From: Azolla caroliniana
Lineage: Eukaryota > Plantae > Polypodiophyta
DNA length: 64,000 nucleotides
Direction of reading: 5' to 3'
Assembly (NCBI GenBank): GCA_043228905.1
Contig: JBHGNT010000016.1
Location: forward strand, 12,772,001-12,836,000
Below the pieces are notes generated by a model that saw nothing but the letters and a program-made list of their open reading frames with translations, was not told the DNA's origin and searched no databases. Of this stretch, positions 30,699 through 55,631 are shown in pieces (the first letter of the stretch is position 1; every line of letters starts with the position of its first letter). The position numbers were made by a program, and so were the translations under genes.

Positions 30699-32040
30699 AC
30701 CATTGCCTCTAGAAAATAAAACGGAGCTAGACGCGTGTCGATATAACGCAGACACCCCTTTTATCCATGCACTTGGAAACCCTAATCTTGATAGAACCGC
30801 CTCCAGAAAGTCCCAATCCACTTTATCATACGCTTTCTCAAAATCTAATAATAGTATCGCAAGGGACTGTTTGTGATGTTAAGCCAATGCAATCATCTCC
30901 CAAAGAAGGAAGATATTGTCAAAGATGCTTCCATCTTGAAGGAATCTTGATTGTGTATCATGTATAATCGAGGGAAGCAACTGTCGCATTCTATTGGCTA
31001 TAGTTTTTGCTACTATTTTATAGATGTCGTTAAGCAAAGTTATTCGATGCCATTTTGATATTTCATTACATTGAGCATCTGATTTCGGGATCATGTATAT
31101 GATTCCTTCCGTCCATTCTTCGGGCATATTCCCTGTTGAGAAAATTAAATTAACTGCTCCAATAAGAGTAGGCCCCAATAAGTCCCAGTAGTGCAAATAG
31201 AATACCACTCCTATGGCATCCTTTCCTGGACACACATTTTCTCCCAGGGATTTAGCCGTTGTCCAAACTTCAGTGTCTGTAAATGGTTGAAGCAACTGGG
31301 AAACCATTACATGAGTGACCTTTTGTTGTACTGTTTCTAGTACAAGTTGTCTCTTATAAAGGTCCTCCTCTGAGAAGGATTTAGCAGATAAAAATTGATG
31401 GTAATATGTCGTAGCTATGTCTCGCATCTCCGAATCATACATTGTGTAAGAGCCATCAAGTCGTTTTAGGGTTTTGATAGATAGTGTTTTATACTTCTAT
31501 TTAAATTGACTGAAGAATTCCCTATTTACCCTATCCCGCTTCTGTAACCAAGAAGCTATATTACGTTGATAGAAATACAATCCTCTCGCCTGTTGCTTTT
31601 CTTTAAAATTACTTTTTACTTGTTGTAAATATGATAGTAATATCAGTAAGGTTGGGTATCTTTCCAATAACTTTTGTGTTGCAGCCAATGCTCGACGCAA
31701 ATTAGCAATCTGATATTGTTCAATCATTATTGAACCACTATTAATTAAGATAGACAAATAGACATCGTTGATATGTTTAGATGGTGTAGTTGATTTTCAT
31801 ACTACTCTACAACATTAGAGGTCTCCCGTTTCAGTCTATGTTTGGACAAGAGAAGTGCTATTTAGATTGACTAGAATCATAACTATTGTTCTTTGCATAG
31901 TTGGTTGTTTGTAATTTAGTCGATATAGTCAAGTATTAAGTTAAACTAACACCAAGTCCTACACATATATTAAGCAAAGCAAAAAGAATTCTTCATTTCT
32001 TGCTACCATTCGTGCTATCTTTTTCAATCTAAATAGTATG

Positions 32041-32712
32041 TAGATCGGCAGACTGCCGACATCTTCAACAAAGCTCTCGGCTTGGACAAGTTGCAACATT
32101 TTTCAGAGATGCTTGGTCTTCAGCATCTCGACATGCGCTTGGATGAAGCAAATAGAAGTGCATTACCACTTTGTGCATGACTTACCAATCGCCAGATTGC
32201 CGACATCTTCACCAAACCTCCCAACCCGAACAAATTGCAATATTTTTCGGAGATGCTTGGGTTCGGCATCTCGACATGCTGCACTTGAGGGGGAGAAAGG
32301 AGGAAACAGGTATGGAAACCAGGAAAACAGGCAAAGGCATTAGACCAGCATCCGGACTGAAGGAAACAACCGAAACAGGGGGAGACAAGAAGAAAAAGGA
32401 AGGCGAGTCGACTGAAGAAGTCGGCACATATGATAAAGTCGGAACAAGCGGCGACGGAGGCAGAGTCAAGAAGGACAGAGCCAACCAGAATAAGAAGGCA
32501 AGACCCAGACTTGGTCCGACATGGTGAAGGGCCCTAAGGTTAAAGAAAAATTGGAGACGGCCAATTCCAGACAAGATTTGGAACGAATTGGAGCTAGCCG
32601 ATTCTGAAGAGGAGTTTGATTCAGAGGAGTCGACTCAACAGAAGGCCAAATAGATGAGGAGGCATCAAATGTCCACACTGACACAGAGGGACAAATGGAT
32701 CGAGAAACGCCA
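32041..32712 (+). mobile_element. Copia 3' fragment (RNase H C-terminus, partly duplicated, plus purine-rich 3' UTR)
   Basis: KQIEVHYHFV and two ADIF(N/T)K-coding segments; no LTR or TSD seen. Confidence 0.6.
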
Positions 32713-33375
32713 AAGTATCAAATTCATCAAAATGCATAAAATTGAGCGATATTTACAATTGCGTTTAGATAGTGTAGTTGGTTATAATGCTAGACTTCTG
32801 CACTAGAGGTGTTCGGTTTGAGTTTGGGTTTATTTGCATGTTTTCAACTATTCTTTTACGAATAAATGATATTTTGAATTTCATCTAAGAACACTCTATT
32901 GTTGAATCATTATTGCACCAAGATTAATTAAGATAGACAAATAGATATCATGGATATGTTGAGATGGTGTAGTTGATTTTCATGCTACTGTAACACATTA
33001 GACGTCTCCGGTCACAGTCTACGTTTGGACAAGAGACGTGCTATTTAGACTGACTAGAATAATAACTATAATTTATTGTTTGCATAGTTGGCTGATTCCA
33101 ATTATGTCGATATAGTCAAGTATTATGTTAAACTAACTGCAAGTCGTGCACATATATTAAGCAAAGCAAAAAGAATTCCTCATTTCTTGCTGAATCCATT
33201 CGTGATAGCTTTTTCAATCTAAATGGTATGTAGTCAGAAAGACTTCTATAAGGTGAATCTTACTACCACTTGGCAAACTTACAAAGTCGTTATGTCAATG
33301 TCGGTATGACATGCCGATCACTTGGTCTAATTAACAAATTCATGTGAAACTATTACATTAGTAATCTCAAAATGG

Positions 33376-33449
33376 GTCCATATGGTGTGGTTGGTTATCA
33401 CGCTAGTCTCACACACTAGAAGTTTGCGGTTCGAAACCGGGTTTGCACA
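33376..33449 (+). pseudogene. tRNA-Val(CAC)-like unit, mildly degenerate
   Basis: Intact anticodon arm CTAGT-CTCACAC-ACTAG and B box GGTTCGAAACC; mismatches in the acceptor and T stems. Confidence 0.75.
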
Positions 33450-34342
33450 AAAAAATTGGTATATAGAATAAGTAGAAGAATTGGTCTCTTGTCACTATAG
33501 AACTAGAATATATTTAGTGAAAGTAAGTGGAACTGATCCATATAGCTTAACCCTAGAAAATTGCCATGTTGATTTCTTGTGTCAATTAGTGTTATATCTT
33601 TCTAGAGACTTGTTTCACCTAAATGCCACAACCACATGGGATACATTGAAACTCATGATGCCCATGTAGTTGTGACATCGTTTCAGTGAAATTATCAAAT
33701 TCATTAGAATGCATGAAATTGAGCGATATTAACAATTGCGTCTAGATAGTCTAGTTGGTTATCTCGCTAGACTTCCACACTAGAGGTCTTCAATTTGAGT
33801 CCGGGTTTATTTGCATGTTTTGAACTATTCTTTTACGAATAAATAATATCTTGAAATTTATCTAAGAAGACTCTATGTTTCAATCGTTATTGCACCAAGA
33901 TTAATTAAGATAGCTAAATAGACATCGTCGATATGTTTAGATGGTGTAGTTGGTTTTTATGCTACTATAACACATTAGAGGTCTCTGATTACAGTCTAAA
34001 TTTAGACAAGAGAAGTGCTATTTAGATTGACTAAAATCATAGCTATTGTTCTTTGCACGGTTGCTTGATTCTAATGATTTCGATATAGTCAAGTATTAAG
34101 TTTAATTAACTACAAGTCGTGCAGATATATTAAGCAAAGCAAAAAGAATTCTTCATTTTTTGCTTCCATTCATGCTATCTTTTTCAATCTAACTAGGACC
34201 AAATGGTCGGAACAAGGAGTGCGTAGGGATAGGCACACGACAATTAGAGGGTGCTTAAGCTAAACAAGAGAAAGTAGGCAACATACACTAATGAGAGAGA
34301 GAGAGAGAGAGATGTTTTAATTCAAAGAGGGTGGTGGGTTTA

Positions 34343-34789: not shown

Positions 34790-35303
34790 TTAGGAGGGCA
34801 TGTATGGACTTAGATTTTGTCCAACATATGAAGGGGCGTGAGATGCTAGTAAGCTCGGGATCTAACATTAAGTCATTATAGAGATTTTTTAGAAAACTAT
34901 GAATGCCTAGTTTTGGGGTATGTTTGGTGTATCTAAGTTTAAAGATTGTGGGGTTAAGGGAGGTAGTAGTTTTGGGTTGATATAGGAGTGTTTTTCTAAG
35001 ATTAAAAGGTATTTTCTTATACCTTTTTAGTATAAAGGAAGTAGGGTAATCACAGTTAACTAGTCTATTGAAAAAGATTTTTTACATTTGGTAGAAACCC
35101 TATGGGGTGCTTTCTCTAATGATATATCTCCTCACTTCATTAGTGATAAAGTGTTGTTTTGTATGGGAAGTGTCAGGAACTCTATTAAGGCAGAGAAGGA
35201 ATTAGTACTAAAAGAAGGATTAGTACTATTGTCGGGAAATAGTACTAAGACAGAGAAGGATTAGTACTATGAGAGGTGTCGAACTTTGAGAGAAGGAATG
35301 GGT

Positions 35304-35349
<46 letters not shown>

Positions 35350-35631
35350 TGATGCGAAAGGTATATGTATTATATGAAGGAAGATATACAACAGTAGTTA
35401 GAAGGCTTAAGACTGGCGTTGAACCGATTTGGTTCGAACTAATGCCTTGCGCCTCCTTTTATAGTGTCTTCAGGAATACTCCTGAAGTTTCTAGAATGTT
35501 CCAGAGAAATCTGGAATATACATCAATTTCCCAATAAAACCTAAATGAAAATAATATCCTTCAAATTACAATTCATAACCTAATGGTAAAGTCTCGACCC
35601 GTGTAACAAAAGGTTATGGGTTCGAGTCTAG

Positions 35632-38600
35632 TTATGACACTATCCCCCCTTTAAAACGACGAGTTCCACGAGTCGTTTTGGATTGAGGACCCGGTTTCTC
35701 GGGATATCGTCGATGGAAGTCTTCTAGAAGAGCACGAGCATTGGTCACATTCTCGATCGGTTCCCAAGTACGCTCGCTGGGACTATATCCTAGCCAATCG
35801 ACTAGATAGTAGAGCTTGTTGCGAACAATCTTGGAATCGAGGATGGCAGCGACCTCATACTCAGGTCCATCTTCGAGCTCGATAGGAGGTGGTGGTTGTA
35901 TAGTACGTCCTGGGATAGTGCTCTCGTGATAGGGTTCGAGGAGAGAACTATGAAACACCGGATGTATCCGAAGTTGCGGAGGTAGCTCGAGACGAAAAGC
36001 GACATCATTAATCTTCCCGATAATACGGAAAGGACCTAATCGCCGATAATCCAACTTCTCACATGGGCGAGTAGTCTTGATGTGTCGTCGTAGCAGCCAC
36101 ACCCGATCTCCAATGTTAAAACTGGATGGAAGTCGATGACGATCTGCGTAGTCCTTGTGTGATTGTTGAGCTTGCTGGAGTTGAGTAGATAAATCCGCTT
36201 GTATCTTGCGTAACCGCTCCAAACGATCCTCCGCGCAAGGATTTGTGGACACTTCTGGGGTTTCAAGGACACACCACCGGGGATGATATCCAGTATAAGC
36301 GTAGAATGGCGTGACTTTAGTCGATGCGTGGATAGCGTTATTATAGGCAAATTCGGCGAACTGAAGAATATCTGCCCAGTCATTCTGATGATAGTTGAGA
36401 AAGCACCGCAGATACTGCTCCAGTGTTTGATTTGTTCGTTCAGCTTGACCGTCGGTTTGTGGGTGGTAGCCGGAGGAGAGGTGACAAGTGACCTTCAGCA
36501 TTTTAAAAAGGTGCTTCCAGAATTTTGACACAAACTGGGGTCCACGATCGCTGATGATATTATCAGGGAGTCCATGATGCCGACATACTTCCCGCATGAC
36601 AATTTCGGCGGTGTCTTCACTAGATATTTCTTTAGTACATGGTAAGAAATGAGCCATCTTTGTATATCGATCCACCACTGTGAGAATCGCACTGAATCCC
36701 TTAGAGACTGGAAGATCTGTAATGAAGTCAAGAGCAATGGATTGCCATGGCTTGCTTGGAATTGGTAATGGTTCTAATAAACCATATGGATGATGTCTTG
36801 GCATTTTCGCTCTGCAGCATGTATCGCAAGTCCGAACAAAATCTTCGACAAATTGTCGCATACGGGGCCACCAGAATGATCGTTGTACTAAATCTAATGT
36901 TTTAGTACTACCAAAATGTCCTGCTGTATATGTGTCATGGCAGTTTTGTACTACTCGAAGGCGGCAAGAACCATTAGGAACATACAAAAGTTCTTTAAAG
37001 AAGAGTAATCCATCACAGTATTTGAATTGCCGATAATCCGTACCTGGTGATTGTGATTGTGAACATGACGCTCGAGAGGGGTCAATTTGTGCTAGTATAG
37101 CTTGGGCGAAAGCGTCAGTCTTCAAGTCCTTACGTATAGTATTGGTAATGTCGGAATCCACGGGCATGTCAAAGACCTGTGCTGCTTGCAGTCGTGCTGG
37201 ACCCAAGATTACTTGCTTCTGGTTATCGAAAGCTGGCTCACCGGGACGTGGTGTTAGATACGAACGCCGTGATAATGCATCTGCCTTCCCTTGGTGCTTC
37301 CCCGGACGATATGTAATTTTGAAGTCGAAGCGTGTGAGGAAGTGGGCCCACCGAGCTTGACGTCGATTCAGTACACGAGCATCTTGAAAGTAGGCAAGGT
37401 TCTTGTGGTCACTGAATACAGTGACCTGATGAGGAGATCCCTCCAGGAAATGCCTCCATTGCATAAAAGAATCAACTATTGCTAATAGCTCTTTATCATG
37501 AATTTCGTAGTTGATTTCGGCGGCGTCAAACTTACGGGAGTGGAAAGCCACAGGATGTAGCTTCTCGTCGTTACCCTGTTGTGACAGAATGCTCCCCAAT
37601 GCGAAATCCGATGCGTCAGCTTCGATAATGAATGGTTTTTCCGGATCCACATGACCTAAAATTGGAGCTGATGTAAACGCCTTCTTAAGACTCTCGAAAG
37701 CCATGTCCGTCTCTTTAGACCAAATGAATGATTGTCCCTTCCTGGTGAGCTGTGTGAGAGGCAGCACAATTTTTGAGTAATTTTGTATGAACTTCCGGTA
37801 AAAATTTGCAAAGCCTAGGAAGCATTGCACATCCCGCACCGAACGCGGAGTGTGCCATTCTATCACCGTTTTGACCTTGGCTGGATCCATAGATATGCCT
37901 TCTGAGGAGATGACATAGCCGAGAAACTCCACTTGGTTGCACCCGAAACTACATTTCTCTAACTTTGCATACAGACCATGTTCTCGAAGTCGTTTTAGTA
38001 CTAATAGTACATGAGAATCATGTTCTTCTTGGGTCTTTGAATAAACCAGTAGATCATCCAAATAGATGATCAAAAAATCATCCAAGAGATCTCGAAATAT
38101 ATCATTCGCCATGTGCTGGAAGACTGCCGGCGCATTAGTGAGTCCGAACGGCATGACCGTATACTCGAAGTGCCCATATCTGGTGCGAAACGCGGTCTTC
38201 CATTCATCTCCTGGTCGGATCCGTACGAGGTTATAGGCTCCTCGTAAGTCGATCTTCGTGAAGAACCTGGCACCGTTGATCCGTTCTAAAAGACTTGAGA
38301 TAAGGGGAAGAGCATACCTATTTCTTACTGTGACCTTATTCAAGCCACGGTAATCTACAACGAGTCGAAGCGAGCCATCTTTTTTCTTGACGAAGAAAAT
38401 GGGTGCGCCGGCTGGAGATTTCGAATGCCGAATGAAACCGTTCTCCAAATTCTCCTCTATATAGGCTCGAAGGACTTCTAGCTCGGTTGGTGACAAATTG
38501 TAGATCGGCCCCCATGGCGGCTCTTTTCCCGGTTGTAAGTCGATGGCGCAATCGTACGGCCGATGATGAGGAAGTGTGTTGGCTTGTACTTTATCGAACA

Positions 38601-39228
38601 CATCAGCATACTGACGATACTTCTCGGGAAGTTGAACGGTGGACTCCTCTTTGGTGGTACTGGAGGGTTGTACTGATATTGCGAAGAGAAACATTTCCTC
38701 CTTGCGCCCTTCCTCATGCAACTGACGTAGCGAAATGGTTGCAACCTTCTGGGTAGATCCTTGGGTTTGTCGCAACCGGATTTCCCTTGTCCTCCAATCT
38801 ATGTCTGGGTTATGTAACTCGAACCATGGTAATCCTAAAACTATGGGATGTTCTGGAATACTAATAATATTAAATGATACTACACATGTTAAGTTATCTA
38901 GGACAATATTAACGGGTTCCGACTCTTCTATGATATTACCAGAAGCAATGGGACGACCATCAATGACTACTACTGAGGCTGGACATGGGAGCTTTCTGAG
39001 AGATATCTGATGAGCTCGGGCAAAATTCCTATCCATGAAGCAAGAATTAGCTCCGGAATCTAGAAGGGCTAAGGTATGTACTGGAGGGGTACTTTTAGTA
39101 CTAACTGCTACTTGGGCTACGAACACATCACTAACTTGCTTAGAGGGAATGGAACCACTAATGGGCTGCACAGATCTAGGGCTGTCCAACCAAACGGCTC
39201 CTATTTTGGCTGGACTTAGTCGTTTAAC
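35632..39228 (-). CDS. pol: Pol (PR-RT-RH-IN-chromodomain), probably expressed by -1 frameshift from gag
   Basis: LLDSGA, YLDD, EADASD, HHCC/DDE, GPF and YEVAAILDS..YLVDWLGY..TWEP motifs; frame is -1 relative to gag. Confidence 0.95.
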   Translation of the reverse strand, partial: VKRLSPAKIGAVWLDSPRSVQPISGSIPSKQVSDVFVAQVAVSTKSTPPVHTLALLDSGANSCFMDRNFARAHQISLRKLPCPASVVVIDGRPIASGNIIEESEPVNIVLDNLTCVVSFNIISIPEHPIVLGLPWFELHNPDIDWRTREIRLRQTQGSTQKVATISLRQLHEEGRKEEMFLFAISVQPSSTTKEESTVQLPEKYRQYADVFDKVQANTLPHHRPYDCAIDLQPGKEPPWGPIYNLSPTELEVLRAYIEENLENGFIRHSKSPAGAPIFFVKKKDGSLRLVVDYRGLNKVTVRNRYALPLISSLLERINGARFFTKIDLRGAYNLVRIRPGDEWKTAFRTRYGHFEYTVMPFGLTNAPAVFQHMANDIFRDLLDDFLIIYLDDLLVYSKTQEEHDSHVLLVLKRLREHGLYAKLEKCSFGCNQVEFLGYVISSEGISMDPAKVKTVIEWHTPRSVRDVQCFLGFANFYRKFIQNYSKIVLPLTQLTRKGQSFIWSKETDMAFESLKKAFTSAPILGHVDPEKPFIIEADASDFALGSILSQQGNDEKLHPVAFHSRKFDAAEINYEIHDKELLAIVDSFMQWRHFLEGSPHQVTVFSDHKNLAYFQDARVLNRRQARWAHFLTRFDFKITYRPGKHQGKADALSRRSYLTPRPGEPAFDNQKQVILGPARLQAAQVFDMPVDSDITNTIRKDLKTDAFAQAILAQIDPSRASCSQSQSPGTDYRQFKYCDGLLFFKELLYVPNGSCRLRVVQNCHDTYTAGHFGSTKTLDLVQRSFWWPRMRQFVEDFVRTCDTCCRAKMPRHHPYGLLEPLPIPSKPWQSIALDFITDLPVSKGFSAILTVVDRYTKMAHFLPCTKEISSEDTAEIVMREVCRHHGLPDNIISDRGPQFVSKFWKHLFKMLKVTCHLSSGYHPQTDGQAERTNQTLEQYLRCFLNYHQNDWADILQFAEFAYNNAIHASTKVTPFYAYTGYHPRWCVLETPEVSTNPCAEDRLERLRKIQADLSTQLQQAQQSHKDYADRHRLPSSFNIGDRVWLLRRHIKTTRPCEKLDYRRLGPFRIIGKINDVAFRLELPPQLRIHPVFHSSLLEPYHESTIPGRTIQPPPPIELEDGPEYEVAAILDSKIVRNKLYYLVDWLGYSPSERTWEPIENVTNARALLEDFHRRYPEKPGPQSKTTRGTRRFKGGIVS

Positions 39229-40385
39229 TCTTCTTCTAATTGGCTAAGGACATCAAATTTGTTTGCGAGATTCGGACTATTAGTACTATTAGGACTATTA
39301 TGACTATGAGGACTATCAGAGATTCCTACTGAAATAGACTCGGGTTTAGTATAATCAGAACTAACAATGACTTGGTTTACCTGCCTTCTTGGTCTATGGG
39401 GACAGTTTATCGCGATATGCCCTGGTCCACCGCAATAAAGGCATAATCGGTTTGTTCGGCGTCGTTGCTTTTCCTCCTCCGATAGCGGCCCACGACGACG
39501 TGTAGTGTCAATTTCCATTGGAGTTGGAGTACTTACTGGAGGCGCATTATGTGACTCCCTTTGAAAAGGTTTTGCTACCACTGAGGCATAGGTAGGCTCG
39601 GATCTTGCCCTCGGCATCTGAAATTGTCGTTCCGAACGTCGCTCGAAGAGGCGGTTGTCACATCTGACCGCTCGACTGATTGCTTCTGTTAATGATTTTG
39701 GCTCTTCAGGGAAAGTCAAGAGTAAATCCTTGACATCGTTGCGTAGACCATAGCGGAACTGCTCCATCAATGCTTGATCATCCCAGGGGATATCGGCGGC
39801 GAGTAGGCGGAAATCTGCAGCATATGCGGAGGCTGGACGGTCACCTTGGCGTAATCGCCGGATTTTGTTGATTGCAGTCCTTATGCTGTCAGTATCTCCA
39901 AAACATGCTTTAAACTCACTTATGAATTCTTCAAAATTATTTAGTACTGGAGATTCCTTTTCTAGTAGCGGAGCGAACCATGCTAATGCTGAGCCATTTA
40001 ACAACGTGCCTACTAAACCCACTCGTGATGCATCGGTGGGATATCGGGACGGATGCATTTGAATAACTAACCGTACCTGGTTAAGAAACCCTCTAAACTG
40101 CGATCGCGTTCCATCGAACTTCGTGGGAAGGCCAATCTTGGGTTCTTTATGAATCCCTTGTGCTCCGTGCCCTTGTTGTTGCATTGCTACGATGGTTGCT
40201 TCGAGTTGTTGCACGCGTAACGCAAGTTCCCCATGCTGTTGTTGCGTTTGCTGCTTTTCTAAGGAAATTTGCTGAAGATCCCCCAACAAGCGTTGATTTT
40301 CTTGTTCCAAAGCATGAAACTTCTCTTTCAAGCATTGAAATTCCGAGAAAACGGATTGATACTCTTCAGCGCTAACGGTGGCCAT
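39216..40385 (-). CDS. gag: Gag (coiled-coil, capsid, CLYCGGPGHIAINC knuckle)
   Basis: 389-aa ORF with sushi/PEG10-like PTKFDG and PMEID motifs. Confidence 0.95.
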   Translation of the reverse strand: MATVSAEEYQSVFSEFQCLKEKFHALEQENQRLLGDLQQISLEKQQTQQQHGELALRVQQLEATIVAMQQQGHGAQGIHKEPKIGLPTKFDGTRSQFRGFLNQVRLVIQMHPSRYPTDASRVGLVGTLLNGSALAWFAPLLEKESPVLNNFEEFISEFKACFGDTDSIRTAINKIRRLRQGDRPASAYAADFRLLAADIPWDDQALMEQFRYGLRNDVKDLLLTFPEEPKSLTEAISRAVRCDNRLFERRSERQFQMPRARSEPTYASVVAKPFQRESHNAPPVSTPTPMEIDTTRRRGPLSEEEKQRRRTNRLCLYCGGPGHIAINCPHRPRRQVNQVIVSSDYTKPESISVGISDSPHSHNSPNSTNSPNLANKFDVLSQLEEELND

Positions 40386-40619
40386 GGGATGAAGGAAAAG
40401 GGAAATAAGAGACTAATAGGAAAGGAGGGAGACAGAAGGAAGAGGGAGAGAAAAGACCAGACAGGCACCGAAAAATCGGTTCAAACTGTCAGGAACTCTA
40501 TTAAGGCAGAGAAGGAATTAGTACTAAAAGAAGGATTAGTACTATTGTCGGGAAATAGTACTAAGACAGAGAAGGATTAGTACTATGAGAGGTGTCGAAC
40601 TTTGAGAGAAGGAATGGGT

Positions 40620-40655
<36 letters not shown>

Positions 40656-41131
40656 TGATGCGAAAGGTATATGTATTATATGAAGGAAGATATACAACAG
40701 TAGTTAGAAGGCTTAAGACTGGCGTTGAACCGATTTGGTTCGAACTAATGCCTTGCGCCTCCTTTTATAGTGTCTTCAGGAATACTCCTGAAGTTTCTAG
40801 AATGTTCCAGAGAAATCTGGAATATACATCAATTTCCCAATAAAACCTAAATGAAAATAATATCCTTCAAATTACAATTCATAACCTAATGGTAAAGTCT
40901 CGACCCGTGTAACAAAAGGTTATGGGTTCGAGTCTAGTTGTGACAGGAAGGATGATCCGATGAAAACGGCAAGTATTGGTATGAATTGAGAGGTTTTTGA
41001 AAACAATTGAATGAAAAAGATGAGTTTTTGAGGTTGATCCATATGTCTAAAAAAGGTAGCCTAAAGGGGGAAGTTTGAATAGTAAGCTTGATGGAGTTAT
41101 TTGTGTATAAAGGGTAAAAGTAAGCTTGATG

Positions 41132-44100
41132 GACTAACGTGATAACCAACTACACCATCTGGACCCATTTGTCATTACTAATTTCATAGTTTCACATGAA
41201 TTTTTTAATTAGACCAAGACATTGGCATATCACACTGATATTGACATAACGACTTTGTAAGTTTGCCAAGTGGTAGTAAGATTTACGTTATAGAAGTCTT
41301 TGTGACTACATACCATTTAGATTAAAAAAGATAGTACGAATGGAAGCAAGAAATGAAGAATTCTTTTTCCTTTACTTAATATATGTGCAGGACATGCAGT
41401 TAGTTTAACATAATACTTGACTATATCAAGATAATTACAATCAGTCAACCGTGCAAAGAACAATAGCTATGATTCTAGTCAGTCTAAATAGCACTTTTCT
41501 TATCCAAACGTAGACTGTAACCGGAGACCTCTAATGTGTTAGATTTGCATGAAAATCAACTACACCATTTAAACATATGAATGATATCTATTTGTCTATC
41601 TTAGTTAATCTTGGTGCAATAACTATTGAACAATAGAGTGTTCTTAGATGAGTTTCAAGATATCATTTACTTGTAAAAGAATAGTTCAAAAGATGCAAAT
41701 AAACCCGGACTCATACCGAAGACGTCTAGTGTGGAAGTCTAGTGTGATAACCAACTACACTATCTAGATGCAATTGTGAATATCACCCAATTTCATGCAT
41801 TTTGATGAATTTGATACTTTCACTAAAGCAACTTCAACATGGCCATCATTAGTTTCAATGTATCCCATGTGGTTGTGGCAGTTAGGTGAAACAAGTCTCT
41901 AGAAAGAAATAGGAGTAATTGATACAAGAAATTAACACATAGATTTTCTTGGCATACATGAGGTCCACTTAGTTTCACTAAATATATTGTAGATCTATAA
42001 ACAAAGATCATTTTTTGTTGTCCAAACACGGACTCGAACCAAAGACCTCTAGTGTGTAAGACTAGTGTGATAATCAACTACACTATTTGAACCCAATTGT
42101 GAAAACCCATTTCATGGATTGAAATGAATTTGTTACTTTGACTGATGCGATGTCACAACCACATGGTCATCACAAGTTTCAATGTAGCCCATGTGGTAGT
42201 GGCATTTATCTCAAACATGTCAGAAACAGATAGCACTATTTGACGTTGATCTTCTCATCGATTTTCTTGGCTTAAGGTATGTGCATGAGATCCACTTAGT
42301 TCCACTAAATATATTCATATATACTAATTCTTCTACTCATTCAATGTAACAATTTTTGTTGTCCAAACACGGAGTCGAACCGAAGAGCTCTAGTGTGTAA
42401 GACTAGCGTGATAACCAACTACACTATTTGGACACAATTGTAAATACCAATTTCATGGATTCAAATGAATTTGTTACTTTGACAGATGCGACGTCACAAC
42501 TACATGGCCATCACGAGTTTCATTGTACCCAATGTGGTAGTGGAATTTAGCTCAAACATGTCAGAAACAAATAGCACTATTTGACACAAAAATGTAAACG
42601 TTCATTTTCTTGGCGATATAGTATTTTTCTAAAGACAGATACCAATTATACTACTCATTCATGTAGCATCATTTCTTGTCCAAACCCGGACTTGAAGCAA
42701 AGACCTCTAGTGTGTTAGAGTAGTGTGATAACCAACTACACTATCTGAACATATGGAAAATACCTAGCTTGGATCGATGAATAAAACACTAAGCTTGATG
42801 TAAATTCCATATGTCAATTCGAAAAGACTAAGTTAAAACATTATTGTTGTTGTAATCGACAAGATTAACTATGCAAACCCAGTTTCGAACCGGAGAGCTC
42901 TAGTGTGTGAGATTAATCAACCCCACCATCTAGACCCATTTCTCATTACTAATTTAATAGTTTGAAATGATTTTGTTAATTAGACCAAGCGACTGGCGTG
43001 TCACATTGAAGTTTGTCAAGTGGTAGTAAGATTTACCTTATAGAAGTCCTTTTGACTACATATCAATTAGATTGAAAGAGATAGCACGAATAGAAGCAAG
43101 AAATGAAGAATTCCTTTTGTTTGCTTAATATATGTGCAGGAGTTGCAATTACTTTTACTTAATACTTGACTATATCTACATCATTACAATCAGCCAACCA
43201 TGCAACAAACAATGCTATGATTTTAGTCAGTCTAAATAGCACTTCTCTTGTCCAAACATAGACTGTAACAAGAGACCTCTAATGTGTTAGAGTAGCATCA
43301 TCGGGTGGGTTTGACGGGAAAGGTGTATCTCAAGGTAGTTATGGATCTCATATATGAAATGTAAATATTGTATGTTACATCAATATGGCGATTCACAAAT
43401 ATGTATAAATATAGGTGTTAGTCATTTTGTAAATTTTGTATGTTTTCTTCTAAATCTCACGTTTCGATTATTTAGACATTTTTTGAAAACCCTAAATTTT
43501 TGGACATGGTATAAATCAATATATTTTGATTCAATTTCCAAAAACCTTTACAAATGTGATGGTCCTTTTTGTATCTTTTTTGGATGGACTAATGGAATGA
43601 TATTTTGTTTTGGAGAAACAAAGGTACATTAGAAGCATTACGTGATGTCGCAAGGGGTGCATCTCTAAATCTCCATGCCTGGAGGCGCATGAAGAGTCGT
43701 CTCATACTCAAGAATGAGAGTGCAATATACCTTAAGTCATTACCTAATCTTCAAGTAATATATATCAAGAGATGGGGGGAGGTAGTGTTAGCATCACATG
43801 GTGACGCATCTCATCACACATTTTCGAAGACTCTTAAAGAGTTAAAACGGATACCAATTATTCTATTCATTCTAGATAGCATCATGTCTGGTCCATACCC
43901 GTACTTGAATGAACCGAAGACGTCTAGTGTGTTAGACTAGCGTGATAACCAACTACACCATCTAGACATATTGAGAATAATTAGCTTGGATTGACCATTA
44001 AAACTCTAAGCTCGATGGAAATTCCATATGTCAATTCGAAAAGAATAAGTTAAAACATTATTGTTGTTGTAATCGACAATATTATGTGTCAAAACCGTGC

Positions 44101-46187: not shown

Positions 46188-47443
46188 TTTTGTGATACAA
46201 GGTCAACATTGGGTGGGTAAACTGGTTCGTAAACTAGTCCGTAGGTTGGGTGCGTAAACCGGGTGCGCAATGAGAGGTCGTAGCTGTGCATAAACTAGTA
46301 GGCCGTCGGAAAGATATTCCGCGGAGGAATATATTTGGGGACTTCGTGTAGGGGCTCATTGATGAGCATTGAAGTATGTGTCAGTACTTCTGTTAGTCCG
46401 TATGGACTTGTATAAAAGGGCTCTCTAAGCACATCCTATGTACAAAGTCTTATTTTCTTGGAATAGAATTATTGTCTAATCTCTCTCTGTCTTTCCCTCT
46501 TCTTCTTCTCTCTGTGTTTGTTGTATTTCACCGAACTGTCATATTTCCGAACTCTGTACTCTGTGTCTTTTACGCACACCCTTCCATGTAACAGGCGGCA
46601 AGCAGAGTTCTCTACTACTTCGCATCCGTTGTGAGTGGTCAACTTCTAAGCTACATTTGGGATGTGAAGACGTCAAAGGATGCTTGGGGAAATCTGAAAA
46701 AGATTTTCGCTGCGAGCAGCACAACCAGAAAGCTCCAACTCAGGTAAGAGTTGAGCAATGTTCGACAACGAGATATGTTGATGGTTGACTACACCTCCAA
46801 GATAAAGGACATCTGTGACTCTCTCGCCTCCGTCATTGTAAACGTCGAGGAGGACGAAATGGTGTAGGTTTGCCTCGTAGGTTATGTCGTGACTCTTGAG
46901 TAGGAAGCAGAGAGAGAGCGATGGCGATAGAGATAACGATAACAATAGAGATAACGATAACGATAGAGATGGCGAGAGCGGTAGAGATAGCGATAGTGAT
47001 AGCAAAAGAGAGTGAAAGAGGGAGAGAGTGCGAGAGAGAGAAAAGTATAAGTGAGAGATAAGAAATGGGAATGCGATTATATTATGAGAAAGAAGATTAC
47101 AAGGAGTAGGCTAAGGGCTAAAGACTGGTGTTGAACCGAATGAGTTGTGATGAGTGTATGGACTCTTATTTATAGGCCCTTATGGAGTATTCTAGAATGT
47201 TCTAGAATATTTTAGATATTTATGAATAATAATAATAATAAATATAATCATGAAATATTCAAGAACATTCTAGAATAATCTAGAATGTTCTAAATATCTC
47301 GTAATAACTAAACATATAATTATTATGATTACATCTCACATATGTTATTACAATGGTTAAAGTACAATATGTAAACCAAGAGGTTATGGGTTCGATTCCT
47401 GGTTCGCCAAGATGAATGTCATGATAAGCCAAGATGTATGTCT

Positions 47444-50400
47444 TCATGACATTATCCCCCCTTTTCGATGACGAGTTGCACGAGTCGGAAGAAAAGAGTT
47501 CAGACTTGGTTTATGAGGATATTGGTTGTGAAATGCAACAACCATGTCGGAGGCATTGGCAAGATGTTCGGCAGGCTCCCATGTTCGATCATTAGGTGTA
47601 TAGCCTAACCAATCAACCAAGTAGTATAGTTTGTTGCGAATGATCTTGGAGTCGAGGATAGCGGCAACCTCATATTCAGAGCCATTGGAAACGTCAATTG
47701 GAGGTGGGGGAGGTGTAACACGACCCGGAATAGAGCTCGTTGTGTAGGGCTCCAAAAGTGAAACATGGAAGACCGGGTGAAGACGCATATGAGGAGGAAG
47801 ATCAAGACGAAATGTCACATCATTGATCTTACCACTTATGACATATGGGCCAAAACGTTGATAATCCAATTTGTAGCAAGGTCGGGTCGTTTTAATGCTA
47901 CCTTGTAAGAGCCATACACGATCGCCTACTTGAAATGTAGTCGATGAATCACGCCGATGACGGTCAGCAATCTTCTTTTGAGTGTTTTGGGCTTCACATA
48001 AATGATGCAAAAGCATATCCTGAACTTCTTGGAGTCGAGTGAGCCGATCTTCAGCAGTTGGGTTTTTTGGGAGTTCAGGATGTTCAAGCATCGTCCAACG
48101 AGGATGGTACCCAATGTTTGCAAAAAATGGGGAATATCCAGTAGAAGAATGCTCGGAGTTGTTATAAGCAAATTCTGCCAAAGGTAGTAAATCCACCCAA
48201 TCATCTTGTTGATAGTTGACAAAACAACGTAGATATTGCTCGACTGTTTGGTTGGTGCGCTCACTCTGCCCATTAGTCTCTGGATGGTAGCCGGAAGAGA
48301 GTTTACAAGAAGTATGTAAGAGTTTGAACATGTGCCGCCAAAATTTCGAGATGAATTGGGGACCCCGATCACTGATAATATCATCCGGAAGACCATGATG
48401 GCGAAACACCTCCCGCATGAGTAAATCAGCTGTCTCTTGACTAGTAATGGTCTTTGTGCATGGAAGGAAATGTGCCATCTTCGTAAAACGATCGACAACC
48501 GTGAGAATCGAATCAAATCCCTTGGAAGGTGGAAGATCCGTAATAAAGTCCAAGGAAATAGATTTCCATGGGCTCTCCGGAATAGGCATTGGCTGTAATA
48601 AGCCATATGGATGATGTCGAGGCTTTTTTGATCGGCAACATGTATCACAGCTACGAACATAATCCGTAACAAAATGGCGAAGCCGTGGCCACCAATATCG
48701 GCGAGAAATCAACTCAAAAGTCTTGTGGATGCCGAAGTGTCCCGCCATTCGTGTGTCATGACATTGTTGCATGACTTTGAGTCGAGAAGGACCGTCAGGC
48801 ACATACAAGAGAGTTTGTCGAAAAAGTAACCCATCATGCCAACTAAACTGGGTGTAGTCTAGACGAGGATTTTGAGTTTGGGAGCTAGATGCACGATTTG
48901 GGATAATATGGCTCAAAACCTCTTGGGCGAACGCATCAGTCGCAATCTGCTCACGAATGGAATCAAGAAGCCTTGAATCTCCCGGTGTGTTGATGGTATG
49001 TATTGCCATTATTCGTAGACGATCAGGACCTAAGAGGATTTGCTTTTGGCTTTCAAATGCGGCCTCTCCAGGTTGAAGTTCCATATACGAACGTCTAGAT
49101 AAAGCATCTGCTTTTCCTTGTTGCATCCTAGGGCGATATAGAATTACAAAATCGAAACGAGTTAAGAACTGCGCCCAACGAGCTTGTCGTCGATTCAAGA
49201 CTCGAGCACTTTGAAAGTATGTTAGATTTTTATGATCATTGTAGACAATAATCTGCTGAGAAGAACCCTCCAGAAAATGACGCCATTGTTGAAAAGAATC
49301 CACAATGGCAAGAAGCTCTTTGTCGTGAATCTCATAGTTGATTTCTGCGGCTTCAAATTTTCGTGAGTGAAAAGCCACCGGGTGCAGTTCACCATCATCA
49401 CCAATTTGGGATAGTACACTTCCGAGTGCGAAATCCGATGCATCAGCTTCAAGTATAAAGCGCCTCATTGGATCGACATGGATTAAGATTGGTGCGGATG
49501 TAAATGCTTGCTTTAAACCCTCAAATGCAGAGTTCGCATCTATACTCCATACAAATGATCGATTCTTGTGCGTCAGTTGAGTGAGGGGCAACACAATTTT
49601 TGAATAATCTTTGATGAACTTGCGATAAAAGTTTGCGAACCCCAAAAAACATTGCACATCTCGCACGGACTGTGGTGTTTGCCAATCCAAAATTGTTTGA
49701 ACCTTTGATGGATCCATAGAGATGCCATTTGAAGAGACTATGTACCCCAAAAACTCCACTTGACATTGGTCGAAACTACACTTCTCCAATTTTGCATAGA
49801 GACCATACTCTCGTAGCCGTTGCAAAACTTGGCGAACATGTATATCATGTTCTTCTTGAGTTTTTGAGTAGATCAAGATATCATCCAGGTAAACAATGAT
49901 GAAGATATCGAGGAAGTCTCGAAAAATATCATTCGCCATATGTTGGAAGACTGCTGGTGCATTCGTGAGGCCAAAAGGCATCACTGTGTACTCAAAATGA
50001 CCATAGCGAGTGCGGAACGCCGTCTTCCATTCATCCCCAGGACGAATTCGAACAAGGTTGTAGGCACCTCGAAGATCTAACTTCGTGAAATACTTTGCTT
50101 CACTGAGGCGTTCTAGAAGGCTTGAGATCAATGGGAGAGCATATCGGTTTCTAACGGTCACTTTATTCAAGCCTCGATAATCCACGACCATACGAAGCGT
50201 ACCATCTTTCTTCTTAACGAAAAAGATGGGTGCACCAGCAGGAGATTTTGAATGTTGGATAAAACCATTTGCCAAGTTCTCATTGATATATTCTCGAAGA
50301 ACCTCTAACTCCGTGGGCGAAAGATTATAAATTGGTCCCCATGGAGGCTCTTTTCCTGGCTGCAAATCAATTGGGCAATCATATGGTCGATGCTCTGGTA

Positions 50401-51088
50401 GTCTATTAGCCTTCACCTTATCGAACACATCGGAGAATTCTATGTACTTCTTTGGTAGTTGGACCCCCAATTCTTGTGAGCTAGATGAGGGAGTTGCTAA
50501 AACCGCAAATACCATCATGTCTTCCTTTCTTCCATCCTCTCGTAATTGATGTATAGAGATTGTTGAAATTGTGGGGGATCCTAGATCCTTAGTTGGAGCT
50601 TCAAGAGACTTGGATTGTACGGTGACCTCTTCAATAGTTCTTTTTCTCCAATCAATGGTTGGGTTATGTAACTCAAACCAAGGAAGACCAAGAACTAGAG
50701 AGTGCTCCGGACTACTAATGATGTTAAATGAGATGACACTAGCCAAATTACCTAGGACTACACGAATTGGTTCAGACTCTTCAACTATATCTCCCGATGC
50801 TATAGGGCGACCATCGATGACTCCTACAGCTACTGGGTTTGGGAGTTTTTTCAAGATGATGTTTTGAGTCAATGCAAACTCGCGATCCATGAAACAGGAA
50901 TTGGCTCCGGAATCTAGGAGGGCAGAGGCTAGGGCGCGATGACCTGTAGATGTGCTAAGCTCGACTTGTGCAGAAAAAACTCTACTAACTTGATTTGATG
51001 AAATGGAACCACAACTAGGTACTGACTCTACATAACTAGGATGGTCCAACCAAATGGCTCCTATTTTGGCCGGACTTATTCGTTTAAC
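47444..51088 (-). CDS. pol: Pol (PR-RT-RH-IN-chromodomain), probably expressed by -1 frameshift from gag
   Basis: Same motif set as chromovirus A; open frame of more than 1200 aa. Confidence 0.95.
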   Translation of the reverse strand, partial: VKRISPAKIGAIWLDHPSYVESVPSCGSISSNQVSRVFSAQVELSTSTGHRALASALLDSGANSCFMDREFALTQNIILKKLPNPVAVGVIDGRPIASGDIVEESEPIRVVLGNLASVISFNIISSPEHSLVLGLPWFELHNPTIDWRKRTIEEVTVQSKSLEAPTKDLGSPTISTISIHQLREDGRKEDMMVFAVLATPSSSSQELGVQLPKKYIEFSDVFDKVKANRLPEHRPYDCPIDLQPGKEPPWGPIYNLSPTELEVLREYINENLANGFIQHSKSPAGAPIFFVKKKDGTLRMVVDYRGLNKVTVRNRYALPLISSLLERLSEAKYFTKLDLRGAYNLVRIRPGDEWKTAFRTRYGHFEYTVMPFGLTNAPAVFQHMANDIFRDFLDIFIIVYLDDILIYSKTQEEHDIHVRQVLQRLREYGLYAKLEKCSFDQCQVEFLGYIVSSNGISMDPSKVQTILDWQTPQSVRDVQCFLGFANFYRKFIKDYSKIVLPLTQLTHKNRSFVWSIDANSAFEGLKQAFTSAPILIHVDPMRRFILEADASDFALGSVLSQIGDDGELHPVAFHSRKFEAAEINYEIHDKELLAIVDSFQQWRHFLEGSSQQIIVYNDHKNLTYFQSARVLNRRQARWAQFLTRFDFVILYRPRMQQGKADALSRRSYMELQPGEAAFESQKQILLGPDRLRIMAIHTINTPGDSRLLDSIREQIATDAFAQEVLSHIIPNRASSSQTQNPRLDYTQFSWHDGLLFRQTLLYVPDGPSRLKVMQQCHDTRMAGHFGIHKTFELISRRYWWPRLRHFVTDYVRSCDTCCRSKKPRHHPYGLLQPMPIPESPWKSISLDFITDLPPSKGFDSILTVVDRFTKMAHFLPCTKTITSQETADLLMREVFRHHGLPDDIISDRGPQFISKFWRHMFKLLHTSCKLSSGYHPETNGQSERTNQTVEQYLRCFVNYQQDDWVDLLPLAEFAYNNSEHSSTGYSPFFANIGYHPRWTMLEHPELPKNPTAEDRLTRLQEVQDMLLHHLCEAQNTQKKIADRHRRDSSTTFQVGDRVWLLQGSIKTTRPCYKLDYQRFGPYVISGKINDVTFRLDLPPHMRLHPVFHVSLLEPYTTSSIPGRVTPPPPPIDVSNGSEYEVAAILDSKIIRNKLYYLVDWLGYTPNDRTWEPAEHLANASDMVVAFHNQYPHKPSLNSFLPTRATRHRKGGIMS

Positions 51089-52203
51089 ACATCCTCTAAT
51101 TGGCTCAAGACATCAAATCTATTCTCATGGCATGGGCTATTAGGCTTAGTACTTAAGTTATTAGAAGTGATAGTAGAACTTGATGTAGGGTTGTCATGTG
51201 CACTTACTTGGTAAACTTGACGCCTGGGTTTATGTGGACAATTCACAGCTATATGTCCTGGACCACCACAGTAGAGGCATAGGCGATGCGCCCGACGTCG
51301 TTGTTTCTCAGCATCTGATAAGGGCCCTCGACGTTGTGTCGACTCTATTTCCATCGGAGTGGGACCATCCCTCGTAACGGGTCTAGAACCTTGTGGCGGT
51401 GTGGCGACTATAGAAGCGTATGTCTGTTCCGGTTGGCGGCGTAACATTTGTTGACGTTCAGAACGTCGCTCAAATAGGCGATTATCACATCGCACAGCTC
51501 GGCTAATAGCTTCAGTAAGAGACTTTGGATCTTCATGGAAGGTAAGAAGAAGATCTTTGACATCGTTACGCAAACCCTGACGGAATTGATCCATTAAGGC
51601 TGCCTCATCCCAAGGGATGTCGCATGCCAAGAGACGGAAATCTGCGGCATAAGCTGAAGCGGGACGATCTCCTTGTCGGAGTCTTCGAATCTTGTTTATT
51701 GCAGTCCTAGTGCTATCCGTATCTCCAAAACTAGCTTGAAACTCCTTAACGAATGCCTCGAAATCCTCCAGTAATGGTGATTTCTTCTCAAGAAGTGGTG
51801 CAAACCATGCTAACGCTGTACCGCTTAGCAAGGTTCCTATTAATCCCACATGGGCAGCATCAGTTGGATACCGATTGGGATGTAACTGAATCACCAAACG
51901 AACTTGATTCAGGAAACCTCGAAAGAGAGATCTGGTACCATCAAACTTGGCAGGGAGGCTAATCTTTGGTTCCCTTGGGGAGTTTTGAACCCCCGCCGCT
52001 TGTTCTCGTAATGTTAATATAGTAGCCTCAAGTTGAAGAACCCGTTGTGATAACTCCTCATATTGATGAGCTTTCTCAGTACTGACTTGTTGAAGATCCC
52101 CGAGTAGCCTTTGATTTTCTTGCTCTAATGCCACAAACTTAGTGGTGAGCATATCGAGCTCCGAAAGGACACGCATATACTCTTGCTTGCTGACCGACTC
52201 CAT
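51076..52203 (-). CDS. gag: Gag with CLYCGGPGHIAVNC knuckle
   Basis: 375-aa ORF homologous to 39216-40385. Confidence 0.95.
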   Translation of the reverse strand: MESVSKQEYMRVLSELDMLTTKFVALEQENQRLLGDLQQVSTEKAHQYEELSQRVLQLEATILTLREQAAGVQNSPREPKISLPAKFDGTRSLFRGFLNQVRLVIQLHPNRYPTDAAHVGLIGTLLSGTALAWFAPLLEKKSPLLEDFEAFVKEFQASFGDTDSTRTAINKIRRLRQGDRPASAYAADFRLLACDIPWDEAALMDQFRQGLRNDVKDLLLTFHEDPKSLTEAISRAVRCDNRLFERRSERQQMLRRQPEQTYASIVATPPQGSRPVTRDGPTPMEIESTQRRGPLSDAEKQRRRAHRLCLYCGGPGHIAVNCPHKPRRQVYQVSAHDNPTSSSTITSNNLSTKPNSPCHENRFDVLSQLEDVLNE

Positions 52204-55200
52204 AACCGCGGGGGAAAAAGAAAGAAGGATAAAGAAGAAAGCTTGCTAGGGTTATTGGAGAAAGGGAAAAGAAATATTCGGTTCAAACTGTCGTGACTCT
52301 TGAGTAGGAAGCAGAGAGAGAGCGATGGCGATAGAGATAACGATAACGATAGAGATGGCGAGAGCGGTAGAGATAGCGATAGTGATAGCAAAAGAGAGTG
52401 AAAGAGGGAGAGAGTGCGAGAGAGAGAAAAGTATAAGTGAGAGATAAGAAATGGGAATGCGATTATATTATGAGAAAGAAGATTACAAGGAGTAGGCTAA
52501 GGGCTAAAGACTGGTGTTGAACCGAATGAGTTGTGATGAGTGTATGGACTCTTATTTATAGGCCCTTATGGAGTATTCTAGAATGTTCTAGAATATTTTA
52601 GATATTTATGAATAATAATAATAATAAATATAATCATGAAATATTCAAGAACATTCTAGAATAATCTAGAATGTTCTAAATATCTCGTAATAACTAAACA
52701 TATAATTATTATGATTACATCTCACATATGTTATTACAATGGTTAAAGTACAATATGTAAACCAAGAGGTTATGGGTTCGATTCCTGGTTCGCCAAGATG
52801 AATGTCATGATAAGCCAAGATGTATGTCTTCATGACAGGTTAGGGTTGATGTTCGGAGCTTTCTGAACCATAGTCTGTAGGAAGGAGAATATGCCGTCGT
52901 TTTTCGACTTACAGTCGATGCTCCTAGTAGAGGAGAACCACACGGGTGCGTCAACGTGTACACACGCCGACAACAAGATGTTGTACACATAGGAAAATAG
53001 GCCCCGTGGTTGTGGTGGACGAGGTGAGTCGGCGGACAATGGAGGCGGCCGACAGGAGCAAGATGGAAGGCATGGTCGTAATGCTAACAGTAGTTTCGGA
53101 TCCCTCCGAAAGCAAGGGGAGTCAATGCGCCTGCCAGAAACCGGCAAGGGAAACCTGCGGTGGAATGCTGGTACTGTGGCTGGAAGAAATGTGTCGATTC
53201 GGAGAAAACCACATCCGGATCCAGGCGGACCGAACAAATAAATCAGCAGCGATCGCACTACACTGAGGGCTCCAACTGAGTTGAAAATGGATTGGGCCCA
53301 GCCTTCGTAATGAAGGACAAGGCCAATTCGACGGCAATAAATACCTCAAAACTGAACGAGGTGTGGTATGTTGACTCTGGAGCATCAAATCATATGATGT
53401 GGCACGAAGAATGGTTTTTGTACTCGGGAGAAACCGGAAAAGCAAGGAGTGGTCAAAACAGGAGACGACACTCCGCATACCATTGAACATGTTGGAGAAG
53501 TTCCCCTCAGCCACGTTCGGCAAAAAGGGAAACTCATGAAGATGTTACATGTCCCGACAATAACCGAGAACCTGGTGTTGGTCGGACAGATCATCGACTA
53601 GGGATTGCAAGTTTGTTTGCTACATCGAAGAAGAAGGCAAGATAATCACACAAGGGTGTCGTTAAGCGAGGATGTTTATCCTCGAGACCAACGACGTAGG
53701 CACCGCTATGTTCATGAAAGGGCAAAAGGTCAAATTGGATATTGACCTGTGGCACAAGCAGTTCGGCCACGTAAATTTCCCGAAGCGTCAAGAAATGCAG
53801 ACGAAATACATCGTTTTCGGCTTGCCGAAATTCAGTGTTCAAAAGGGCCAAGTTTGCGAAGCTTGGCAGCTGGGAAAGCGTCACTGACTTTGATTCCCCA
53901 ATGAACATAACCGCAATCAAAATCTGCTCGATGTGATCCATTCGGATATATGGGGATCGGTACAAAACGTGAGTCTCGGTGGAAGCCAATATTTTGTGAC
54001 TTTCATCGATGACTTCTGTCGGCACAGTTGGGCATGCTTGATTGTGAAAAGAGGTAAGTCTTGTGGAAAGAGCTTTGCGGAAAGGCAAACCGGATGAAAG
54101 ATCAAGTGCCTAAGGTCCGATGATGGGAAGGAATACTTCTCCGACCAGTTCTCGAATTATCTGCAAGACGGAGGATTTCAGAGTACTTCTCCTCCAGATA
54201 CACCCCGCAGCAGAATGGCGTGGCAGAGAAAAAAAAATGTACGATCGAAGAGGCGGTCAGGGCAATGTTCGAACATAAGCATATGCCAAAATTTTACTGG
54301 GCTGAAGCAGTAATGATAGTTGTTTACTTGCAGAATCAGACTTCTACTAATGGAGGAGTATTGCCACATGAATTGTACTCCAAGAAGAAGCCGAACTTGG
54401 CACACTTGAGGGTTTTCGGTAGCATCCTGTATGTGCATGTGCTGAAGGAGAAACGGCGAAAAGATGGATGCCAAAGCTGAGAAGTGTATCTTGGTTGGCT
54501 ACTCGGACGACCAAAAGGGTTATAAGTTTTATAACCCCCGAAGCAAACAAGTTGTTATAAGTTGTGATGTGTTTGACGAGTCCGGGTCGTGGTACTTGCC
54601 TTCGCCTCCAACCACTGACGACTCCATTCCGATCACTAACGAAGAGGTCAGCGAGGCTGAAATGCCTCGGGAACAAGGAGACATCGGAGCTCCTGAAGAG
54701 AGTCTAATCTCATTCAGGGTAAGTGGGCCGAACGAGCGACTGAGTCGGCATGACCAATTAGGCATATAGCCGATGAGTAGTGGTGAATCAGCCGTGCATT
54801 CCCCACACAAGAAGCCGAGGACAGGGCTTACGTGCGAAGAGAAAGGAAAGAAGAAGATGTTGGACTATGGCATTAATAGGGAAGAGTCGGATCAAAGAGA
54901 ATCCAACTCCGAGAAGAACGAAGATGGACCTTCGGAAACGAAGTTCGTGTGGGCCAAGAGGGCCTCAAAATCGGCTAATGAGCAATTACACCGCTCCACC
55001 CACTAGAAGAACCTTGTGGTGTGTTGCAGATACAATGAGTACATGACACATCATTATGCATGCATGACGCGAGTGGCAGAAGTGCGTGAGCCAGAGAGCT
55101 ATGTAGAAGTGGCGAAGGACGCGAACTAACGTGCCGTGATGAAGAAAGAGATGCATGCGTTATCAGACAATGAGACTTGGGACCTAGTTGACGCACCTAA

Positions 55201-55631
55201 AGGTGTGAAGCCGATCGGATGAAAATGGGTGTACAAGGTGAAGTACAACACCGATGGTTCAGTTAACCGATACAAGACCCGGTTAGTGGCGAAAGGCTAC
55301 GCGTAGAAGGACGTTGTTGATTACGATGAGACCTTCGCACTTGTCACGAAGATGACCACTATTTGTGTTCTACTGGCCGTAGCAGCGGCGAAGGGGTGCC
55401 ACTTACATCAGATGGATGTAAAGAATGTGTTCCTGCAAGGTGATCTTGAGGAACAAGTGTACATGGTACAACCCCCTGGATTTCAATCTGACTGGAACAT
55501 CGCCACTACCGACCTAGATGAAATCGGCGGCATAAAATCTCAGCTCGCGGCATCATTCAACATGAAGGATCTAGGGGACCTTCATTAGTATGTGTCTTTT
55601 ACGCACACATTTCTGGACGTATTCCTTTACA

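Follow-up and report, generated by a model that had tools for sequence, protein, structure and literature searches.

The window, that is, the whole stretch of 64,000 nucleotides that was analysed (Azolla caroliniana, contig JBHGNT010000016.1, positions 12,772,001 to 12,836,000 of the forward strand), contains two intact LTR retrotransposons, designated A and B, on its minus strand. Their LTRs carry, in antisense orientation, a module that resembles the A and B boxes of tRNA genes and is described here in tRNA numbering. The features are as follows.

35171..40945, minus strand: element A, by its features a Tcn1-type chromovirus, target duplication GGAAG (5 bp)
35171..35639, minus strand: 3' LTR of A, U3 start at 35639
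35458..35463, minus strand: TATA box of the LTR Pol II promoter, 3' LTR copy of A
35484..35501, no strand assigned: HSE-like GAA/TTC array in the 3' LTR of A, between module and TATA box (script match)
35576..35628, plus strand: module in the 3' LTR of A, antisense to the element (T8 35576, G18-G19 35585-35586, G53 35620, C61 35628)
35632..39243, minus strand: pol ORF of A, overlapping gag (PR, RT, RNase H, integrase, SH3, chromodomain)
35640..35652, minus strand: polypurine tract (PPT) and spacer, adjoining the 3' LTR of A
39216..40412, minus strand: gag ORF of A (Retrotrans_gag, Ty3_capsid, weak zf-CCHC)
40471..40486, minus strand: primer-binding site of A, pairing with the predicted RNA start 35 nt past the TATA box
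40487..40945, minus strand: 5' LTR of A
40882..40934, plus strand: module in the 5' LTR of A, facing outward into host DNA
46885..52837, minus strand: element B, by its features a Tcn1-type chromovirus, target duplication GGTTA
46885..47451, minus strand: 3' LTR of B
47169-47174: TATA box of B, 3' LTR
47190..47275, no strand assigned: two HSE-like arrays in the 3' LTR of B, between module and TATA box (script match)
47346..47398, plus strand: module in the 3' LTR of B (G53 47390)
47444..51112, minus strand: pol ORF of B, with chromodomain
51076..52245, minus strand: gag ORF of B
52289..52837, minus strand: 5' LTR of B
52732..52784, plus strand: module in the 5' LTR of B

In both elements, gag and an overlapping pol are intact, the domain order is that of Ty3/gypsy elements, and the chromodomain is C-terminal, with its aromatic cage residues visible. 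The LTRs of A differ by one substitution and one microsatellite indel, those of B by no substitution. The Pol proteins of A and B are 69% identical and the R/U5 part of the LTRs aligns at 74% over 123 nt, so the two elements represent related families. Their LTRs, which the initial annotation had called largely dissimilar, are thus not wholly so, the R/U5 part being the exception. The GAA/TTC arrays in both U3 regions are motifs that we take to be heat-shock-element-like (HSE-like); such arrays (35484-35501, 47190-47275, and also in locus L139) suggest heat-induced transcription of these chromoviruses. The complement of the primer-binding site lies 34-35 nt after the TATA box in both A and B, and both are predicted to be self-priming, with no tRNA needed. 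Chromodomain, gag/pol overlap, 5-bp duplication and predicted self-priming fit the Tcn1 clade, an assignment made by features, the tree described below having no named Tcn1 reference among its rows. Mosses and club-mosses are known to harbour Tcn1 elements (PMC6317226). Near the gag/pol overlap, five RNA reads of a related organism jump over 196 nt (39005-39202), with no standard splice ends at the gap. Element B sits inside a Copia-like fragment, and Copia-type elements and fragments are found in the window at 1009-5112, 20640-23500 and 53300-55500. Degenerate tRNA-Val tandem arrays occupy 31700-34200, 41100-46200 and 55700-63000, and also 13713-13786, with 11 ARAGORN calls (anticodons TAC, CAC and AAC); comparable arrays of tRNA-Lys, -Ile, -Thr and -Trp are present elsewhere in the genome (L200-L208, L217, L388-L390, L315).

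The module is found in all four LTRs, with T8 of the A box at 35576, 40882, 47346 and 52732. The sequences quoted for it in the initial annotation are present in the 3' LTRs of A and B, and each recurs in the partner LTR. The reported equality of the distance between the boxes was also confirmed, since T8 to G53 is 44 nt in both families (43 nt to G52). The sequence GGTTATGGGTTCGA, reported as common to the two LTRs, has 4 exact matches in the window, all within the LTRs of A and B. The module does lie near the LTR end in both elements, as its description as a U3-edge feature implied, but the distance from G53 to that end is unequal, 20 nt in A versus 62 nt in B. From the edge inward, the order in both U3 regions is B box, A box, AT-rich tract, HSE-like array or arrays, and TATA box. 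A position-weight model built from the tRNA genes of the same genome gives 33.0 and 30.2 bits for the modules of A and B. Among 712 window tiles outside the tRNA-Val arrays, scored with the first version of this model, the 99th percentile was 7.4 bits and the best tile without a module reached 13.8 bits. In the 523-Mb assembly, the pattern AATGGT-N25-36-GGGTTCGA has 4123 matches, versus 286 for the reversed control. ARAGORN makes no tRNA call on the module, and the Rfam tRNA model has no match at E<=10 in 26 kb, so only the promoter boxes are tRNA-like.

3' LTRs were sampled independently of the module through the PPT junction by taking the first 100 from 2955 matches; these 100 all lie on a single contig. 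Among the 89 sites with coding sequence for the chromodomain region upstream, 86 have an antisense module of at least 15 bits within 130 nt of the LTR start, and an antisense module of at least 15 bits is also present at 6 of the 11 sites without upstream coding sequence. None of the 100 sites has a sense-strand module of at least 15 bits, in agreement with the antisense orientation originally assigned, and none has a module of that score in the next 130 nt inward. Of the 92 positives, 75 have a spacing of 44-45 nt, and old copies are decayed. In some copies (L009/L308/L309, L318), the whole module is duplicated in tandem at the LTR end. Loci L103, L104 and L109 have Tcn1-type ends, no detectable coding sequence and a module kept at 51-nt spacing; these derivatives have a long hairpin in the spacer, and one has an internal tandem repeat. 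The unclassified repeats L297 and L313 contain pairs of A/B-box modules with 44-46-nt spacing.

A metagenome scan by integrase-chromodomain alignment yielded 79 loci. The module is present in all seven close relatives with a readable LTR (five families, 65-74% amino acid identity), a count that leaves out two further close loci ending before the LTR; the spacers of these families differ. Among 18 more distant loci with a called LTR start, none reaches 20 bits, and two score 16-18 bits at doubtful calls; most of the distant loci gave no LTR start and fall outside this count. In the Azolla genome itself, the single-ORF gypsy clade has no module (24 loci, maximum 6.3 bits; five whole-locus scans), and 30 of 30 iMet-primed loci are likewise devoid of it. 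For Selaginella SM-Tcn1, inspection by eye of the record linked to PMC2864245 revealed no module, the U3 in that record consisting of tandem repeats. A tree with 55 rows places the bearers in one clade of 18 (support 100/100, one row being unreadable) and a separate group of three (L101/L114/L115). The latter is sister to the module-less L129-L135, so the tree needs two changes, and a single origin within Tcn1, which was considered, is unsupported.

The module is real and clade-wide. As had been proposed, it is a tRNA-derived A/B-box module; it is conserved across related families and in the elements of other organisms. When LTRs are aligned across families, G18 to G53 spans 35-36 nt in 16 of 16 family representatives (search range 30-45). 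The alignment was anchored on G18, G19, G53, T55, A58 and partly T16, so the invariance of these positions is by construction. Non-anchor positions are kept as well, namely A44 and T47 in all 16 representatives, T8, G46, T60 and C61 in 15 and A14 in 14. Columns of the spacer are kept in only 6-14 of the 16. Loci L123-L126 have other palindromic motifs in U3 instead of HSE-like arrays, yet the same module. The two boxes, with their tRNA invariants, lie within 30-60 nt, as in type 2 Pol III promoters. The 20-50 nt upstream of T8 are 83% AT (86 modules), and AT-rich tracts are a trait of TFIIIB sites (PMC13578239); AT richness is general in these U3 regions, however, and CAA is not conserved. The module is apparently under selection.

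Features that an RNA product would need show no such conservation. In the 16 family representatives, pairing in the D, anticodon, T and acceptor stems does not exceed that of shuffled columns. A functional tRNA gene was considered and rejected, as there is neither a paired-stem cloverleaf nor a conserved anticodon, and ARAGORN and Rfam are negative. A conserved poly(T) terminator is absent from the 3' LTRs, where the B box is followed by the first T4 run after 10 to about 1380 nt. With stems at shuffle level and the terminator not conserved, the DNA boxes are kept but an RNA product is not. The loose likeness to tRNA-Thr(UGU) noted in the initial annotation did not hold up: of 53 positions compared, the tRNA-Thr(UGU) of the genome agrees with the module at 31 in A and 30 in B, and Arg, Lys and His match at least as well. 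Among the 14 isotypes compared, a Thr(UGU) donor is no better than the others, and the donor isotype is therefore not nameable.

The same antisense boxes are found in U3 of a second, distant gypsy lineage. Some tRNA-Trp-primed elements (L108:1183-2280, L230, L232, L243, L245, L111) carry antisense A/B-box modules with 44-45-nt spacing, 115-350 nt inside U3. Their Pol is about 23% identical to that of A and lacks a chromodomain. The tRNA-Trp primer, the 4-bp NCGN duplication and the missing chromodomain fit Phygy, which is listed with NCGN duplications (PMC6317226 supplement). L108 has two antisense modules and a weaker sense match further inward. Among 30 primer-site-anchored Trp loci, three have a clear antisense module inside the LTR and one is borderline (the raw tally is four antisense, one probably outside the LTR); two sense matches are a module of a neighbour and a weak inner match, and most of the 30 loci are without a module. 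In the gag tree, the Phygy-like bearers group at an SH-aLRT of 82 only, on long branches. Their spacers have 13.4 matches to Tcn1 spacers versus 14.2 for tRNAs (with the B row offset by two bases), distances that allow either independent capture or saturation. With the same offset of the B row, no spacer link was found among Tcn1, the Phygy-like elements and a microsatellite-associated repeat. The latter, present in CT/GA microsatellites (L235-L237, L322-L323), has two different tRNA-like heads face to face and may be a family of SINE or MITE type. The Phygy-like LTR of L108 shares a palindromic motif of about 27 nt, at 83-96% identity, with the metagenome Tcn1 LTRs L123, L125 and L126, which may reflect U3 exchange between lineages or a shared factor site.

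The reading that we prefer, with slightly less than even confidence, is that the module stems from the capture of a Pol III promoter and is retained for a role at the DNA level, as a TFIIIC/Pol III barrier or open-chromatin anchor. It is favoured because TFIIIC-readable DNA is kept and the requirements of an RNA are not, and because the module lies outside the enhancer and TATA box. The finding of the same antisense boxes in a distant lineage also supports it. The initial annotation had considered an insulator or an antisense promoter; the lack of a conserved T-run makes a defined antisense RNA less likely and lends support to the DNA-element part of that proposal. A tRNA gene or the head of a tRNA-derived SINE would have been captured into an ancestral LTR, and replication would then have copied the module to both LTRs in each round. 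TFIIIC would bind the boxes and load TFIIIB onto the AT-rich tract inward of them; any Pol III recruited there would read outward and so avoid collision with the Pol II promoter of the element. In the 5' LTR, the module stands between host chromatin and the enhancer and TATA box, where a barrier or anchor could shield the Pol II promoter from silencing that spreads in from the insertion site. The benefit would be expression of a chromodomain element that has landed in repeat-rich silenced chromatin.

There is a precedent for such an activity at S. pombe cen1, where heterochromatin is stopped by a tRNA gene, which needs an intact A box, TATA and Pol III to do so (PMC2040200). The likeness to the proposed model is that a tRNA-type promoter acts on neighbouring chromatin. 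However, the cen1 barrier is a host gene outside any LTR, and it is orientation-independent (PMC2040200), unlike the nearly always antisense module of A and B, so that an extra argument from interference is needed. B2 SINEs are mobile boundaries (PMC8136502) as well, but they are not part of an LTR, and the factor named in the available text is CTCF, not TFIIIC. It may count against a barrier that the B-box CpG is not visibly protected from decay. Among the 66 of 100 copies that are readable at this position, which are not independent of each other, 51 have CG, 11 CA and 4 TG; change affects 15 of 66 at the B box versus 6 of 46 CG-derived states at the spacer CpG, and the excess of the box-compatible change is not significant. 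The module is also dispensable for mobility in general, since many successful gypsy families of the same genome and, on visual inspection, SM-Tcn1 are without it. The RNA reads, all from poly(A) libraries of a related organism and mostly below 95% identity, amount to 19-105 per run, form no clusters of starts or ends and are uninformative on a Pol III transcript.

Alternatively, the module may be transcribed by Pol III to give a functional antisense RNA, acting in self-limiting silencing, as a decoy or as a small RNA. Both boxes are kept at optimal tRNA spacing with an AT-rich tract upstream, a transcript from the 3' LTR would span the PPT and the end of the integrase, and the spacer can pair with the B-box region in A-like families. 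Moreover, foamy viruses produce Pol III miRNAs from their LTR (PMC3993851). We nevertheless regard this explanation as unlikely, because neither terminator nor stems are conserved, the hairpin is of similar strength on the two strands in A and weak in B, and a transcript from the 5' LTR would enter arbitrary flanking DNA.

Three further explanations appear improbable, each about as much as the others. The module could descend, as a neutral relic, from a single ancient insertion of a SINE or tRNA. The grouping of the bearers in one strongly supported clade and one smaller clade, and the decay of old copies, would agree with this, as would the report by Kojima that tRNA-like pieces occur in not a few LTRs (PMC10886601). 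Yet among families with 54-74% protein identity, the spacer and the remaining U3 sequence are replaced but the boxes hold their positions and spacing, and the arrangement recurs in the second lineage with spacers that are no closer to Tcn1 (13.4) than tRNAs are (14.2). There is equally little to recommend Pol II cis-elements on the sense strand that merely resemble A and B boxes. A location in U3 upstream of the enhancer and TATA box would suit such elements, but the kept positions and the 44-45-nt spacing are those of class I tRNA geometry, including AGGT at tRNA positions 44-47, and scores of 30-38 bits are within the range of real tRNA genes (17-52 bits).

A role in reverse transcription or integration, as an attachment site, as an RNA structure by the PPT or in the docking of cDNA to Pol III sites, is no more credible. 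In Tcn1 elements the module adjoins the PPT at 15-72 nt from the LTR end, a region rich in inverted repeats. Nonetheless, this distance varies fivefold and the module is 115-350 nt inside in Phygy-like LTRs, the elements are predicted to be self-priming with no tRNA required, and no common structure was found in the 16 family representatives. The integrase attachment site, an alternative named at the outset, is disfavoured because Tcn1 families differ in how far G53 lies from the LTR end (15 to 72 nt). That the module is a landing pad attracting Pol III-targeting elements is very improbable: five independent Phygy-like insertions (L301/L391, L305/L393, L312, L320/L321, L392) do lie at one site 15 nt upstream of T8, against one true insertion in 3 matches, plus one in L063, for a control CCGG site of similar copy number, but the site near T8 is ACGT, which is preferred anyway (22 of 39 flanks of the lineage are [AC]CG[GT]), so the cluster is largely explained by the preference of the lineage for NCGN targets, and with a rough expectation of 1-2 events versus five the counts are too small to decide.

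Transcription by Pol III is known from the LTR of Drosophila mdg1. Among plant elements, Cassandra TRIMs resemble A and B in having an internal Pol III promoter within their LTRs (PMC10886601, PMC12786077), and, according to a 2025 review, Cassandra is exceptional among LTR elements in using Pol III (PMC12786077). Unlike the module described here, the promoter of Cassandra is 5S-derived (type 1), resides in a non-autonomous element and has been shown to drive the transcript of that element (PMC10886601, PMC12786077). Helenus TRIMs are similar to A and B in that tRNA-derived sequence is present in both LTRs with only boxes A and B conserved, and in that no functional tRNA is predicted; a SINE insertion into the LTR has been proposed as their origin (PMC10886601). 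However, Helenus elements are short and non-autonomous, with tRNA primer sites, whereas A and B are autonomous, 5.8-6.0 kb long, with intact gag and pol, and predicted to be self-priming. In the Helenus LTRs compared (Selaginella, wasp), the module is in sense orientation and can be the promoter of the element; in A and B it is antisense at the U3 edge, and the LTR has a separate Pol II promoter. The analysis by Kojima (2024) covered only elements shorter than 1 kb (PMC10886601). The cassettes in foamy-virus LTRs are alike in placing an A/B-box Pol III promoter in an autonomous retroelement with a Pol II promoter, but their terminators and hairpin products, demonstrated by experiment, have no conserved counterpart in A and B (PMC3993851). 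The Tcn1 and Phygy elements of mosses match A and B and the second lineage in their element features, and the available text of their descriptions makes no mention of tRNA-like boxes in the LTRs (PMC6317226, PMC2864245). In the accessible parts of a literature that included PMC2864245, PMC6317226, PMC7466625 and PMC13578239 and consisted mostly of sources other than subscription papers and Repbase notes, we found no report of antisense A/B boxes in the LTRs of autonomous plant elements.

The capture of a small-RNA promoter in an LTR is therefore known, but its antisense placement, in autonomous elements and in two lineages, is unusual. Pol III promoters in plant LTRs are known from short non-autonomous elements, in which they drive the RNA of the element itself. 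The elements described here code for proteins and have a Pol II promoter of their own, and they retain a second, outward tRNA promoter with no conserved RNA product. The modules could give rise to false annotation of tRNAs or SINEs. With more than 4000 pattern matches in the 523-Mb genome, they could also be a major share of its TFIIIC sites. The broader proposition, that autonomous gypsy elements have at least twice independently captured a tRNA promoter as a portable outward barrier and have thereby spread thousands of TFIIIC/Pol III sites, we consider conceivable but doubtful. If the module is a barrier, elements inserting into silenced chromatin would bring along their own protection from silencing, and the module would provide a handle on the question of whether tRNA-gene insulators work in plants.
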